Below the pieces are notes generated by a model. It was not told where the DNA came from and ran no database searches. It was given only the letters and a program-made list of their open reading frames with translations. Of a DNA stretch of 64,000 nt, positions 41,871 through 62,720 are shown piece after piece. How positions within the stretch are numbered: the stretch's first letter is position 1; every line of letters begins with the position of its first letter. Source of the DNA: Candidatus Nanoarchaeia archaeon (lineage in GTDB: Archaea > Nanobdellota > Nanobdellia > Pacearchaeales > GW2011-AR1); contig JBGQNO010000003.1 in assembly GCA_041501125.1 (NCBI GenBank), forward strand, positions 2,399 to 66,398, given 5' to 3'. Made by a program: the position numbers and the translations under genes.

Positions 41871-41990
41871 TGAGCCCGCGCGGATTTGAACCGCGGACCC
41901 CCGGCTTTCTTAGCATTAAGCTACAAGTTTTAGTTCTAGCGAACTAGTGTCATATAAGACCGGTGCTCTACCGAACTAAGCTACGGGCTC
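41871..41990 (-). tRNA. tRNA-Ile (anticodon UAU) with 46-nt intron at canonical 37/38 position
   Basis: Reverse complement GAGCCCG TA GCTT AGTTCGGTA GAGC A CCGGT CTTATA [46 nt] A GCCGG GGGTC CGCGG TTCAAAT CCGCG CGGGCTC A. A CTTA/TAAG 4-bp helix flanked by 3-nt bulges fits a relaxed bulge-helix-bulge. Confidence 0.8.
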
Positions 41991-56337: not shown

Positions 56338-58230
56338 ATGGCTGAGGACAAGAAAAAGTATTCTGCTGAAGAAATCAAGATTTTGGAAGGGCTTGAAGGC
56401 GTCAGGAAAAGGCCCGCGATGTACATAGGCAGCACTGGCAAGGAAGGCCTGCACCATCTTGTATATGAAGTTGTTGATAATTCTGTAGATGAAGCTATGG
56501 CTGGCTACTGCACGAAAGTTACTGTCATAATAAGGAAGGATGGCGCTGTTTCTGTTGAGGACAATGGCAGGGGTATTCCTGTAGAAATGCATCCTGTTTA
56601 CAAAAAGCCTGCCCTGGAGATTGTAATAACAAAACTTCATGCAGGAGGCAAGTTTGAACACAAGGCATATGCTGTATCTGGAGGATTACACGGAGTAGGA
56701 TTGAGCGTTGTTGCTGCACTTTCCAAGAAATTGATTGCTGAAATTGAAAGAGATGGAAAAGTATGGCAGCAGGAATATGAGATTGGAAATCCTGTGACAA
56801 AGATAAAAGCTATTGGAAACACAGAAACAACAGGCACAAAGATTACATTCTGGCCGGATACCAAAATTTTCTCTACAACTGAATTTGACTTTTTGACGAT
56901 ATCGACCAGATTAAGAGAGATAGCATTCCTGAATCCAGGACTCAGCATAGAACTGATTGATGAGAAGAAAGACAAGAAAGAGACATTTTCATATACAGGT
57001 GGACTGATTGAATTTGTCAAGTGGCTTAACAGAACTAAAGAGGCTCTGCACAAGCCTGTCTATTTCAAGAAAACTGCAGACCATACAATAGTTGATGTTG
57101 CTATCCAGTATAATAACAGCTATCAGGAGAACATATACGGATTTGTGAATACTATCAATACTGTGGAAGGAGGAACTCACATAGTTGGTTTCAAGACTGC
57201 TTTGACACGGGTTATTAATGATTATGCAAAGAAACAAGGCATCCTTAAAGAGAAGGACGAGCCTTTGACAGGTGATGACACGAGAGAAGGACTGACTGCG
57301 ATTGTAAGCATAAGAATTCCTGAGCCGCAGTTTGAAGGACAGACAAAGACAAAGCTTGGAAATTCTGAAGTCAAAGGATATGTTGATTCTGTTGTTACCA
57401 GCTCGCTGGCGGAATTCTTTGAAGAAAATCCTCCGATTGCAAGGAGAATTGTGCAGAAAATAACAGAAGCTGCGAAAGCAAGACTTGCTGCAAAGAAAGC
57501 AAAGGAGCTTGTCAGAAGAAAATCAGCTTTTGGTGTTGGAGGATTGCCTGGCAAGTTAGCAGATTGTTCAAGCAACAAAACTGAGGATACCGAATTGTTT
57601 ATAGTTGAAGGCGAGTCAGCAGGCGGAAGTGCAAAACAAGCGAGAAACAAAGAGTATCAGGCAATACTGCCATTGAAGGGAAAAATCATGAATGTTGAAA
57701 AGGCAAATCCTACAAAAGTTTTGTCGAGTGAAGAGATTTCCAATTTGATAACTGCGATTGGAACAGGTGTAACTGAAAGCTTTGACATTGAGAAGCTAAG
57801 GTATGGAAGAATTGTGATAATGACAGATGCAGATGTTGACGGCCAGCACATCAAGACCCTGCTTTTGACATTTTTCTACAGATATATGCCAAAGCTTATT
57901 GAGAATGGAAATGTCTATGTTGCGGTTTCGCCGCTTTACAGAGTGAGGAAAAAGGAAGACTTCTATGTTTACTCTGATGAAGAACTCAAGATTATTTTGA
58001 AGAAAGTTGGCGAGAATTCTGATGTTCAAAGGTTCAAAGGTCTTGGAGAAATGAATCCACAGCAGTTATGGGACACTACAATGAATCCAAGAACAAGAAT
58101 TATGAAGCGAGTTGCAATAGAAGACGCTGTTGAGGCTGACACTATATTTTCAATACTTATGGGCGAGGAAGTCGCGCCAAGAAAGAAGTTCATAATCGAG
58201 CATGCCCACGAGGCATTCTTAGACATATAA
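56338..58230 (+). CDS. gyrB: DNA gyrase subunit B
   Basis: LEGLEGVRKRPAMYIGS, GHKL ATPase motifs, Toprim ELFIVEGESAGGSA, PLKGKIMNVEKA, IMTDADVDGQHI. Start set at ATG 56338 (track TTG 56302). Confidence 0.95.
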   Translation: MAEDKKKYSAEEIKILEGLEGVRKRPAMYIGSTGKEGLHHLVYEVVDNSVDEAMAGYCTKVTVIIRKDGAVSVEDNGRGIPVEMHPVYKKPALEIVITKLHAGGKFEHKAYAVSGGLHGVGLSVVAALSKKLIAEIERDGKVWQQEYEIGNPVTKIKAIGNTETTGTKITFWPDTKIFSTTEFDFLTISTRLREIAFLNPGLSIELIDEKKDKKETFSYTGGLIEFVKWLNRTKEALHKPVYFKKTADHTIVDVAIQYNNSYQENIYGFVNTINTVEGGTHIVGFKTALTRVINDYAKKQGILKEKDEPLTGDDTREGLTAIVSIRIPEPQFEGQTKTKLGNSEVKGYVDSVVTSSLAEFFEENPPIARRIVQKITEAAKARLAAKKAKELVRRKSAFGVGGLPGKLADCSSNKTEDTELFIVEGESAGGSAKQARNKEYQAILPLKGKIMNVEKANPTKVLSSEEISNLITAIGTGVTESFDIEKLRYGRIVIMTDADVDGQHIKTLLLTFFYRYMPKLIENGNVYVAVSPLYRVRKKEDFYVYSDEELKIILKKVGENSDVQRFKGLGEMNPQQLWDTTMNPRTRIMKRVAIEDAVEADTIFSILMGEEVAPRKKFIIEHAHEAFLDI

Positions 58231-58231
58231 A

Positions 58232-58873
58232 ATGAATGACAATTTTTTTAGTGAATTGAAAGAGAAGATACAGCCAAACTATGAACAAGGCGGAAGCCAC
58301 GCTTTTGACCATACCCAAAGAGTTTATAATTTATCACTCAAACTTGCCAAAGGCCAAGTTGTTGACATGGATATTTTGAAGGCTGCTGCATTATTGCATG
58401 ATATCGCAAGAATGAAGGAAGATTGCAAAGAGGTTCAGTGCCATGCAGAGCATGGTGCAGAAATGGCAAAGAGAATACTTGAAAAAACTAATTTTCCAAG
58501 AGAAAAAATAGAGAAAGTTTGTTATGCAATAAAAGTGCACAGGCATCGCAAGGAGATAAAAGCTGAAACAAAAGAGGCAGAAATATTGCAAGATGCTGAC
58601 AGGCTAGATGCATTGGGAGCAATAACAATAGCAAGGATGTTTTCAACTGGCGGAAAGATGAACATGCCGATTTATGACCCGACAAAACCTTTTGGCAAAG
58701 CTCATCCAGGATATGAAGCTGAATCCACCATTCATGCATTTTATTTAAAAATATTAAAATTAACTCCAGAAACATTCAAGACAGAAAAAGCAAAAAAAAT
58801 TGCAAAGAAGAGATATGCTTTTGTTGAGAAATTTTTAAAACAATTCAAGTTAGAATGGGAAGGAAAACTTTAA
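58232..58873 (+). CDS. HD-domain phosphohydrolase
   Basis: H..AALLHDIAR..HAEHG..DADRLDALG HD-superfamily motifs; 1-nt spacers on both sides. Confidence 0.75.
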   Translation: MNDNFFSELKEKIQPNYEQGGSHAFDHTQRVYNLSLKLAKGQVVDMDILKAAALLHDIARMKEDCKEVQCHAEHGAEMAKRILEKTNFPREKIEKVCYAIKVHRHRKEIKAETKEAEILQDADRLDALGAITIARMFSTGGKMNMPIYDPTKPFGKAHPGYEAESTIHAFYLKILKLTPETFKTEKAKKIAKKRYAFVEKFLKQFKLEWEGKL

Positions 58874-59039: not shown

Positions 59040-62000
59040 ATGGCTGAAGAAAATAAAGACAAAGAAATAGAGAACTCTGTTGAAAAAGAAAAAATGAAAG
59101 AAGCAGAGAAAGACGTAATTGAAAATTCAGGCAAGCATATTGTTCGCGCAGAAATTTGTGAGGAAATGGAGAAAGCTTACATTGACTATGCAATGTCAGT
59201 CATTGTTTCCAGGGCAATTCCTTCTGTTGAAGATGGCTTGAAACCTGTCCAGAGAAGAATATTATACTCAATGTCAGAAATGGGTTTGCAACCTAACAAG
59301 CTGACAAAGAAGTCTGCAAGAATCGTTGGAGATGTTCTGGGCAAGTTCCATCCTCACGGAGATATGGCTGTCTATGACGCAATGGTAAGGATGGCACAGG
59401 ACTTCTCAATGAGATACATGCTTGTTGATGGCCAGGGAAACTTTGGATGTTTTACAGCAGATACAAAGGTGAAACTTGCAGATGGAAGAAATTTATCATT
59501 TGCAGAGTTAATAGAAGAGCATAAACAAGGAAAAAGAAACTTTACATTCACAATTGATGAAAATAACGAGTTTAAAATAGCTGAAATAAAAAATCCAAGA
59601 AAGACAAAGGAAAATGCAGAAATTATGAAAGTTATCTTAGACAATGGAGAGGAAATTAAATGCACTTTAAACCACAAATTTATGCTTAAACAGGGAAATT
59701 ACAAAGAAGCGAAGGATTTGATTTCAGGGGATTCTTTAATGCCTGCTTATTTCAGACTTTCCACAAAAGAAGACGATAAAAATGCAGTCGGATATAGCAT
59801 GATTTTCCAATCAAACTCAAACTCATGGAGTTTTGTGCATACGCTTTCTGATAAATGGAATTTAGAAAATGGAATCTACCAAAGAAATGCAGGACGAGTA
59901 AGACATCATACTGACTTTAATAAACTTAACAACAATCCTGATAACATAAGAAGAATGCCTTGGAAAGAACACTGGAAAACCCATTATGATTTTACTTCTA
60001 AGAGGCATAAAACTGATTCTGAATACAGAGAGAAATTAGCAGAAGGAAGAGAGAGATTCTGGGATAATAAACAAAATAGAAAAGATTATTCAGAAAGATT
60101 AAGTGAAAGAAATTTCCAAAACTGGAAAAAGGAAGATTACAGAACACAGATGAAAGTAACTTTAAGTGAAGTTAATAAAAAATACTTAAAAGAACATCCA
60201 AAAGTTATTGAAGAAATAAGAAAGACAGCTTCAATAACAATGAAAAGATTGTGGAAAATTCTAGAATACAAGCAACTTTATCATGAAAAAATTGTTGCTT
60301 CAAATAAAAGAAGAGAGCATAATCTAACAGGAAAAATAAAATTTTTGAATATTTGCAATTATCTTAAACAAAATAATTTGCCTTTAAACAAAGAGAACTA
60401 CGAAAAAGCAAGAAAAGAAGTATTTGGAACAAAAAGTTTTACAAAATGGAATTTGGGGCTTAAGAAGTATTATGATAATGATAACAATCTTTTATTATGC
60501 GCAATGAATCAAAATCATAAAGTAGTCAGAACAGAATTTTTGAATGAATCTGCTGATGTCTACGATTTGACAATAGACAAGACACATAATTTTGCTCTTG
60601 CATCTGGAATTTTTGTGCACAATTCACTTGATGGAGATCCTCCAGCTGCAATGAGGTACACTGAAGCAAGACTTTCTGGAATCTCTACAGAGATACTGGG
60701 AGATATTGACAAGGATACTGTCGAATTTATGCCTAATTTTGATAATAGCATGAAAGAGCCAGCGACTCTGCCTTCTAAATTGCCGAACCTGCTGATTAAT
60801 GGGGCAAGTGGAATAGCAGTTGGCATGGCGACAAATATTCCGCCACATAATCTTACTGAAGTTTGTGATGCAATAGTTGCTTACATTAATAATCCAAGCA
60901 TCGAAATAGACAAGTTAAGTGATATTGTTACAGGTCCTGACTTTCCAACAGGTGGAACTATTTCTGGAGACATAAAAGAGATTTACAGGACTGGAAATGG
61001 CCGCGTGACAATGCGTGGCAAGCTGGCTATTGAGGAAGCAAGAGGAAAAGAAAGCATAATAATTACTGAAATTCCATACATGGTCAATAAGGCAGATTTA
61101 GTCACACAGATTGCCAGACTTGTCCAGGAAAAGAAACTTCCAGAAGTTTCTGACATAAAAGATGAAAGTTCAAAGGGAAGAGTTAGGATTGTAATTGAAC
61201 TGAGAAGAGGCGCGGATTCCAAGTTTACTATTAACCGCTTGTATAAATTCACAAGACTGCAGGAAAACTTTGACATTAATACTCTGGCTCTTGTGAAAAA
61301 CAAGCCGCAAATTTTGAATCTGAAACAGTTGATTGAGAATTATGTTTCTTACAGAAAGATAATCATAACAAGGAGAACTGGATTTGAGCTGAAAAAAGCA
61401 GAAGACAGGCTTGAGATTGTTATTGGATTGATTACTGCATTGAAGGACATTGATGCTGTTGTTGAACTTATCAAGAGAGCTGAACATACAACTGATGCCA
61501 AGGAAAAGTTGATGAAGAAATACTCGCTTTCCTTGAGGCAGGCTGAAGCAATACTTGAAACAAGGCTTTCTGCATTAACTCACCTGGAGCAGGATAAGTT
61601 GAAGAAGGAAGAGTCAGACCTGAAGGTTGAAATTAAAGAACTGAAGCAGATTCTTTCGAGCGACAAAGAGATACTTGATGTTATTAAAAAGGACATTTTT
61701 GAATTGAAGAGAAAATACGGAGACAACAGGAAAACCCAGGTTATGGCAAGGCAAGTCAAGGAGATTACAGAGGCAGAGCTTGTCCAAAAGAAAGAAGTTG
61801 TTGTCACAATCACTGAGAAAGGATATGCAAAGAGAATGGATCTTAAAACATATAAGGAACAGAAACGCGGAGGAAAAGGAGTTATTGGCTCGGACTTGTC
61901 AACAGGCGATTTTGTGAGGCAATTGATTGTATGCTCTACTCATAATTATTTATTGTTCTTTACTGACAAGGGAAAATGTTACTGGCTTAAAACATACGAG

Positions 62001-62720
62001 GTTCCAGAAGCAGAAAGATATGCAAAAGGAAAAGCTCTCATTAATCTGCTGAACATCAAAGATGAGAGAGTAATGAGTGTTCTACCTGTTTCAGAATTCA
62101 AGGACTCAATCATTATGGTTACTGCAAACGGCATTGTGAAGAAAATGAATCTTTCAGTGTTAAGCAATCCAAGAAGTAACGGAATACGCGCAATTAATCT
62201 GCCTGCTGATGGAAGTGATATTGTTGTTGATGTCAAGCCGATTATGGACAAGCAGGAAATGTTGCTTGTGACAAAGAAAGGACAGGCAATAAGATTTGAC
62301 GGAAGCGAGATAAGGCCAATGGGCAGGGCAAGCTACGGTGTTACTGGAATTAAAATGGATAAGGATGACAAAGTTGTAAGCTTGGAAGTCTTGCCTTTGC
62401 AGAAAGATAATACAACTATCCTGACTATAACTGAGAAGGGTTATGGAAAGAGAAGTGCAATTGGAGATTATAGGATAACTGGCAGGGCTGGCAAGGGTGT
62501 TATTAATTTGAAAGTCAGCGACAAGACAGGTACAGTTATAACAACTGTTTCTGTCAGCGACACAGACAGCATCATAGTAACAACTGCCAAGGGGATGGTT
62601 ATCAGAACTCCGGTCAAGGAGATGAGGGTAATGGGACGAGTAACACAGGGTGTGAGAATAGTGAAGCTTCATCCAGAAGACAAAGTCGTTGATTTAGTTA
62701 AGGTGGAAGAGGCGGAGTAA
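59040..62720 (+). CDS. gyrA: DNA gyrase subunit A, interrupted by a 392-aa intein
   Basis: [38 protein letters not shown] | intein | [17 protein letters not shown] (catalytic Tyr), C-terminal beta-pinwheel repeats. Confidence 0.95.
59448..60623 (+). mobile_element. GyrA intein (class 1, Cys1..His-Asn, +1 Ser) with HNH-type nuclease insert
   Basis: Starts [13 protein letters not shown] (block A), has TLNHKF (block B), ends [21 protein letters not shown] followed by S. The central [29 protein letters not shown] is an HNH motif. No LAGLIDADG motifs seen. Confidence 0.85.

Follow-up and report, generated by a model that had tools for sequence, protein, structure and literature searches.

The 64,000-nt window analysed here (contig JBGQNO010000003.1 of a Candidatus Nanoarchaeia archaeon, positions 2,399 to 66,398) contains a gyrA gene whose reading frame is interrupted by a 392-residue element. 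We interpret this element as an intein that combines a Hint splicing domain with an HNH-type nuclease domain, inserted at a gyrA site different from the classical one. The features of the gene and of the insert, in window coordinates, are the following:

59040..62720, + strand: gyrA precursor open reading frame, 1226 aa including the intein (Pfam DNA_topoisoIV 4e-152, DNA_gyraseA_C 3e-70)
59040..59447, + strand: N-extein, GyrA aa 1-136, ending at the residue equivalent to E. coli G110
59448..60623, + strand: predicted intein, 392 aa, from Cys1 to His391-Asn392 (translation, intein profiles and structural model)
59448..59759, + strand: N-terminal Hint lobe, aa 1-104 (TIGR01445 intein_Nterm 6.8e-11; modelled beta strands at pLDDT 92-96; Foldseek matches to solved inteins)
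59448-59486, + strand: block A, within the N-terminal Hint lobe
59661..59681, + strand: block B, CTLNHKF, with Thr73-x-x-His76 (C72, T73 and H76 invariant in a 43-sequence alignment)
59892..59984, + strand: predicted HNH nuclease core, aa 149-179 (beta-beta-alpha element in the model: E151-154, E167-170, H172-189)
59985..60512, + strand: helical array, aa 180-355, about nine helices in the model, presumed DNA-binding/target-recognition module
60513..60623, + strand: C-terminal Hint lobe, aa 356-392 (TIGR01443 intein_Cterm 1e-7)
60555-60599, + strand: block F, within the C-terminal Hint lobe
60606-60623, + strand: block G, GIFVHN, within the C-terminal Hint lobe
60624..60626, + strand: codon of the +1 Ser, the predicted C-extein nucleophile, equivalent to E. 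coli S111
60657..60659, + strand: codon of the GyrA catalytic Tyr (AAMRY, E. coli Y122), 12 residues past the splice junction

The insert corresponds to precursor residues 137-528, beginning with CFTADTKV right after DGQGNFG and ending with GIFVHN before SLDGD, and its removal leaves a mature GyrA of 835 aa (834 aa plus the start Met). This insert-free protein aligns with solved GyrA structures without any gap across the junction, its residues 32-246 corresponding to chain residues 6-220 of E. coli GyrA (6rks). Therefore, in E. coli numbering, the junction is G110|S111 and the catalytic Tyr is Y122. The joined flanks of the intein, given here as an example of an empty site, read ...GGCCAGGGAAACTTTGGA|TCACTTGATGGAGAT.... 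An earlier note on this DNA had placed a 392-aa element at 59448-60623, between DGQGNFG and SLDGD, and the translation gives exactly these coordinates. It had also proposed that the insertion point is other than the classical mycobacterial GyrA site, which holds in our alignment (G110|S111 vs Y122|T123) and agrees with the presence of a different intein at AMRY|T in relatives; the distance to the AMRY|T site, given there as 11 residues, is 12. The classical GyrA-a site, located directly after the catalytic Tyr, is empty in the window's gyrA. The higher AT content that the note attributed to the intein is likewise recovered, both in overall GC (29.7% vs 39.9% for the exteins) and in GC at third codon positions (GC3; 0.24 vs 0.38).

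As judged from its residues and its modelled fold, the insert is a genuine class-1-type intein with all the splicing blocks. Pfam Intein_splicing (PF14890) matches the window's protein with 84.6 bits and an E-value of 8e-24 (cut-off 35.8 bits), and the NCBIfam matches TIGR01445 and TIGR01443 both exceed their cut-offs. The canonical residues read in the earlier note (Cys1, the TxxH of block B, the terminal His-Asn and the +1 Ser) are all present, together with blocks F and G. In an alignment of 43 inteins from this gyrA site and from a gyrB site discussed below, C1, C72, T73 and H76 are invariant on the N-terminal side, and N356, H357, V371, Y372, D373, H380, N381, F382, H391 and N392 in the C-terminal lobe; the residue that follows the intein is Ser in all 119 homologues examined. 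A structural model of the Hint fold plus insert, which the note had recommended, was built with AlphaFold (AF2) from the 43-sequence alignment and displays a confident Hint fold (mean predicted local distance difference test score, pLDDT, 86.3), with beta-rich lobes (aa 1-129 and 357-391) around a helical insert. When this whole model was compared to the PDB with Foldseek, the best matches were all solved inteins or Hint domains (Npu DnaE 2.6e-5, probability 1.0). In the whole assembled genome (625 kb, 88% complete), the Pfam model detects no intein other than this one.

The conserved residues point to the chemistry of class-1 protein splicing. The two Hint lobes of the translated precursor (aa 1-104 and 356-392) would fold together, and Cys1 would undergo an N-S acyl shift aided by Thr73 and His76 of block B. 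Ser+1 would attack the resulting thioester, and Asn392, helped by His391 and by the Asp/His of block F, would cyclise and release the intein, yielding the 835-aa GyrA with an intact GQGNFG-SLDGD...RY active-site loop. Splicing is taken to occur because gyrA is essential and this is its only copy. With the insert in the active-site loop, 12 residues away from the catalytic Tyr, no gyrase activity is expected of the precursor before splicing. The intein could have been co-opted as a conditional (e.g. redox) splicing switch gating gyrase, in which a Cys1-Cys72 disulfide would trap the precursor. Redox traps are known for other inteins, and the Cys72 next to block B is shared by all 43 GyrA- and GyrB-site inteins. 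Nevertheless, most relatives manage without the intein, and the pattern of a selfish element explains its distribution without any benefit to the host, so that we regard such a switch as very improbable.

The nuclease domain located between the two Hint lobes is of the HNH type and not of the LAGLIDADG type, according to both its sequence and its modelled topology, as the earlier note had read it. The motif RHH(153-154)...N161 N162...N166...H175...H179 sits exactly on a modelled beta-hairpin plus helix, whose secondary-structure elements reach a pLDDT of about 86-92; a beta-beta-alpha-metal finger has the same topology. Between the GyrA-site and GyrB-site inteins, whose overall identity is just 35-40%, conservation reaches 90% or more at H153, H154, N161, N162, N166, H175 and H179. 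Pfam HNH_3 was matched in nine of ten family members (best E-value 5.6e-5), the PHROG HNH endonuclease family phrog_7545 was matched by the window's insert (2.3e-4) and by a GyrB homologue (5e-7), and PF13392 is precomputed for two GyrB-site homologues. No LAGLIDADG family was found by Pfam in the window's protein at E-values up to 1, in a search that does report PF14528 in homologues carrying a second intein.

The HNH core is followed by the helical array, for which the note had described three E/D-Y-R-x-x-L/M repeats. The motif [DE]-Y-[RS]-x-x-[LM] was recovered three times, at aa 192, 213 and 230 (window positions 60021, 60084 and 60135), and a looser fourth one is present at aa 273 (60264). 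No Pfam family was found for this array, and NUMOD3 is absent, at E-values up to 1, from the arrays of the window's intein, a GyrB homologue and the database protein P0137. A relation to GerD was also considered and discarded: the match, obtained on a longer homologue, was under the cut-off and is probably a repeat artefact. The GyrA-site HNH intein of P0137 (1183 aa) has a far longer array, made of a dozen or so repeats of about 20 aa (W-x-x-P-E-Y-R-x-x-x-S), and is followed by an AMRY-site intein. Therefore, the number of repeats varies widely within the GyrA-site allele.

Outside gyrA, the closest relatives of this intein are the 431-aa HNH inteins found in relatives at the Toprim site of GyrB (EGxSAGG|SAKQ). 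They share 35-38% identity with the window's intein over all 392 residues (E-values of 1e-64 to 1e-80) as well as the full-length architecture, namely Hint-N, a beta linker, the HNH core (K/R)HH...EH...H, the helical array and Hint-C, and both kinds end in G(I/V)FVHN|S (GIFVHN|S in the window's intein). GyrB mini-inteins (genomes G013, G018 and G009) are 50-60% identical to the Hint part of the window's intein. In contrast, the host genes and targets differ (gyrA G110|S111 vs the gyrB Toprim motif EGDSAGG|S), the array of the window's intein is 39 aa shorter than in the GyrB-site homologues, and the GyrA-site allele is seen almost only in DPANN archaea, whereas the GyrB allele also occurs in the candidate phyla radiation (CPR), Omnitrophota and other bacteria. 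The corresponding gyrB site of the window itself is empty:

57607..57648, + strand: empty GyrB Toprim site, EGESAGG|SAKQ, with its junction at 57627|57628

The inteins of the GyrA and GyrB sites branch together as one group (support 97) in a tree of 102 Hint+HNH sequences, which leaves outside the group 51 of the 55 inteins taken from other host sites. This branching and the full-length similarity suggest that the GyrA-site allele is very probably a sister lineage of the GyrB Toprim-site HNH inteins. Within the group, the GyrB set forms a clade (support 96) and the GyrA set an unresolved grade with three outliers, so that either direction of transfer between gyrA and gyrB would be compatible with the tree. 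A homing sequence shared by the two sites was also considered. The empty-site DNAs coincide merely in the GGA|AGT junction hexamer and in a GGA six codons upstream, which is too little for a common recognition site. It is possible, although we find it rather doubtful, that G110|S111 is a gyrA insertion site ('GyrA-b') never described in the intein literature, and that a GyrB Toprim-site HNH intein, or its ancestor, founded it by jumping between the two subunit genes, retargeted by a remodelled helical array. If true, the array would be a modular, evolvable DNA-recognition unit, which has about nine helices in the window's intein and is extended by two repeats in the GyrB copies and by many in some GyrA copies such as P0137.

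We take the GyrB Toprim-site HNH intein (EGDSAGG|S) to be of the Ssp GyrB type, the intein in which an HNH nuclease was reportedly first proposed, by Dalgaard et al. in 1997. The N-terminal sequence that we presume for Ssp GyrB is 55% identical to the window's intein and 63-70% identical to the DPANN GyrB copies, figures that serve as a lead and not as a test. The Ssp GyrB C-intein was published as GVFVHN followed by Ser (PMC2794532), and the GyrB allele has been reported from cyanobacteria and haloarchaea (Soucy 2014, PMC4071816). When the most Ssp-like GyrB representative was used as a query, the best 120 matches included CPR, Omnitrophota and Woesearchaeota and no named cyanobacterium. In addition, the gyrB genes of genomes G018 (L024, 1357 aa) and G011 (L023, 1578 aa) contain, beside the Toprim-site intein, a further and unrelated insert, about 550 aa long. 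Its end, ...GGLCCHN|TDADVDG, lies in the RYxKIxIM-TDADVDG motif, and a simple pattern search revealed neither a LAGLIDADG nor an HNH motif in it.

The GyrA-site allele is abundant, not rare. The intein region was searched against 5.8 billion proteins, resulting in 2563 matches at E-values up to 1e-5, of which the best 120 were considered in detail. These 120 are all GyrA proteins, mostly of about 1200-1270 aa, with an intein identity of 67-98%, and 119 of them present the junction GN(F/W/L)G|C...HN|S. Those with a labelled host come from Pacearchaeota, Nanoarchaeota or Woesearchaeota assemblies, plus one CPR bacterium. The latter protein (P0120, 1194 aa, Candidatus Staskawiczbacteria) is 67% identical to the window's in the intein and just 48% in the exteins, and could be either a real cross-domain transfer or a mis-binned contig. 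The named close relatives of the locus are similarly from Nanoarchaeia, Nanoarchaeota, Pacearchaeota and Woesearchaeota assemblies; the contig scan with a single protein uses exact peptide patterns and therefore yielded merely four named loci. Among 400 high-quality genomes sampled from the phylum, a full-length match is of the GyrA type in about a dozen (an estimated 3%) and of the GyrB type in about 50, as inferred from identity and frame length, with hosts verified in some cases. Where the database matches carry a label in the public records, it is 'DNA gyrase subunit A' or 'hypothetical protein'.

This recurrence also bears on whether the insert could come from a chimeric assembly, or be an in-frame insertion other than an intein. 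The host, a DPANN archaeon, is represented by a 625-kb metagenome-type assembly of 16 contigs that is 88% complete, and the GC of the insert is unusual. Nevertheless, the junctions are codon-exact, the insert has the Hint fold and every splicing block, and the same junction is found in over 100 independent assemblies of several origins and in GTDB genomes, which makes the probability of an artefact close to negligible.

The site was then compared among 41 genomes of the same family and order. The same intein occupies it in two of them (G018 and G009), a different intein is located at AMRY|C(V/I)(S/T)GD in four others (G017, G006, G032 and G030), and about 34 of the 41 present no insert, as judged by the frame length (gyrA frame of about 810-905 aa, or cut by the contig end). 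Every empty gyrA site that was read keeps GNFG|S at both the protein and the DNA level, a point that the earlier note had proposed to check in relatives. Mini-inteins of 152-164 aa that have lost the nuclease are found at the same gyrA site in genomes G344, G112 and G069. The site is thus known in an empty, a full and a mini state, as the usual homing cycle would produce. The two inteins can also be present in a single GyrA, separated by 12 extein residues, as observed in genomes G279 (L035, C26) and G052 (L036, C6) and in seven database proteins (P0026, P0041, P0063, P0078, P0090, P0114 and P0117). In these precursors, of 1634-1694 aa, the HNH intein is at GNFG|S and the second one at AMRY|C, which carries a LAGLIDADG domain in the seven database proteins. 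Two further proteins of about 1709 aa (P0018 and P0098) contain the HNH intein together with another insert elsewhere.

Regarding mobility, the HNH nuclease and the helical array would recognise and cut intein-less gyrA around GGN-CAR-GGN-AAY-TTY-GGN|AGY/TCN, and repair of the cut allele would copy the intein into it. Both the cleavage and this target are conjectural, in contrast to the nuclease domain, which is predicted from the sequence and the modelled topology. In all 114 full-length homologues, the identity to the window's protein is higher in the intein (mean 72%) than in the exteins (mean 61%), the gap reaching 67% vs 48%. As these exteins belong to an essential and highly conserved protein, the better conservation of the intein suggests that it spread horizontally once the hosts had diverged. 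In the eight hosts examined, the GC of the intein is always below that of the host gene, yet it tracks the host level (49% in a 61% host), which suggests partial amelioration together with a composition effect. The intein is thus probably mobile. Altogether, we favour a bifunctional Hint + HNH intein at a second gyrA site ('GyrA-b'), sister to the GyrB-site inteins and circulating horizontally in DPANN archaea, and we give this reading a probability of roughly 0.88.

Several observations weigh against it. Part of the GC deficit of the intein is explained by its Lys/Asn-rich composition, and its GC3 is just 1.3 standard deviations under the mean of the window's long open reading frames. The 114 homologues were chosen by intein similarity, which inflates the contrast with the exteins. 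For the nuclease, the window's own sequence scores 13-14 bits for Pfam HNH_3, under the gathering score of 24.8. Solved HNH nucleases were not matched in structure: the Foldseek comparison of the whole model to the PDB gave only Hint matches, the insert modelled by itself from a 10-sequence alignment had a pLDDT of 51, too poor to search with, and a hidden Markov model of the insert found nothing among the PDB sequences. The low HNH_3 score would also suit a dead relic of the HNH domain, in an intein that still splices and is inherited only vertically, without homing, and the nuclease-less mini-inteins at the same gyrA site and at the GyrB site show that decay does occur in the lineage. In contrast, all the HNH motif residues are intact and strongly conserved across alleles as distant as those of gyrA and gyrB, the intein surpasses the essential host protein in conservation in every comparison, and its presence among close relatives is patchy (3/41). 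Together, these features fit recent horizontal movement better than vertical decay, and a dead nuclease seems unlikely to us.

Regarding the genomic context, a gene encoding an HD-domain protein (58232-58873) is located between gyrB and gyrA on the same strand and nearly abuts gyrB, which ends at 58230; the gyrB / HD-domain gene / gyrA layout looks like an operon. Further away, on the reverse strand, there is a tRNA gene of 120 nt (41871-41990), a length that implies an intron and fits an archaeal genome.

In the literature, archaeal GyrA inteins appear solely as material to exclude: a study of gyrase phylogeny discarded the intein-containing sequences, 23 of GyrA and 61 of GyrB (PMC9348778). 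A large survey includes bacterial GyrA and GyrB inteins, its main text giving no sites (Novikova et al., 2016). Our full-text literature search, which covered neither the supplementary tables of that survey nor InBase, retrieved no paper naming a GNFG|S gyrA intein allele. The element belongs, as an ordinary case, to a large and well-understood class, and the current understanding of inteins is unchanged by it; the sole possibly new point seems to be that the common G110|S111 insertion site was never formally described. When DPANN genomes are annotated, GyrA proteins of about 1200 aa should be considered as precursors. The pairing of the GyrA and GyrB alleles provides a clean natural example of one intein lineage in two subunits of one enzyme. 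In practical terms, the intein is a close relative of the GyrB intein already used in protein engineering, with the same G(I/V)FVHN|S C-terminus and different native exteins.

Among other known systems, the architecture is shared with phage Hint+HNH inteins, such as the Hint protein of Bacillus phage SP-15 and the terminase and polymerase inteins of uncultured phages. The whole model matches phage Hint+HNH proteins over about 400 columns with 25-26% identity (E-values of 4.8e-26 and 2.2e-20). These phage inteins differ in that they occupy other host genes, are distant in sequence and are located outside the clade of the GyrA-site and GyrB-site inteins. The wider Hint+HNH family comprises 4764 cluster representatives (E-values up to 1e-3), which are inserted at many sites of many host proteins, often several per protein.

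The other gyrA intein, that of Mycobacterium xenopi and M. leprae (PDB 1AM2), for whose M. xenopi allele the name 'GyrA-a' is in use (PMC5050341), occupies the same host protein and the same active-site loop. Like the window's intein, it is of the class-1 type and has Cys1 at its start and His-Asn at its end. In contrast, GyrA-a is inserted at Y122|T123 with a +1 Thr, whereas the window's intein is found 12 residues upstream, at G110|S111, with a +1 Ser, and the archaeal members of GyrA-a carry a LAGLIDADG nuclease (PF14528, with matches to PI-PkoII and VMA) instead of the HNH domain predicted here. The AMRY-site intein of genome G017 matches 1AM2 at 2e-21, as well as LAGLIDADG intein nucleases, while the comparison of the window's intein with 1AM2 (Mxe GyrA) gave no match at E-values up to 10. 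Beyond their common membership of the Hint superfamily, the window's intein is thus unrelated in sequence to that of Mxe GyrA, and the two gyrA sites are used by unrelated inteins. These two sites of gyrA are independent and lie in the same active-site loop at a distance of 12 residues; the inteins that use them have nucleases of different families and are sometimes found in the same protein.

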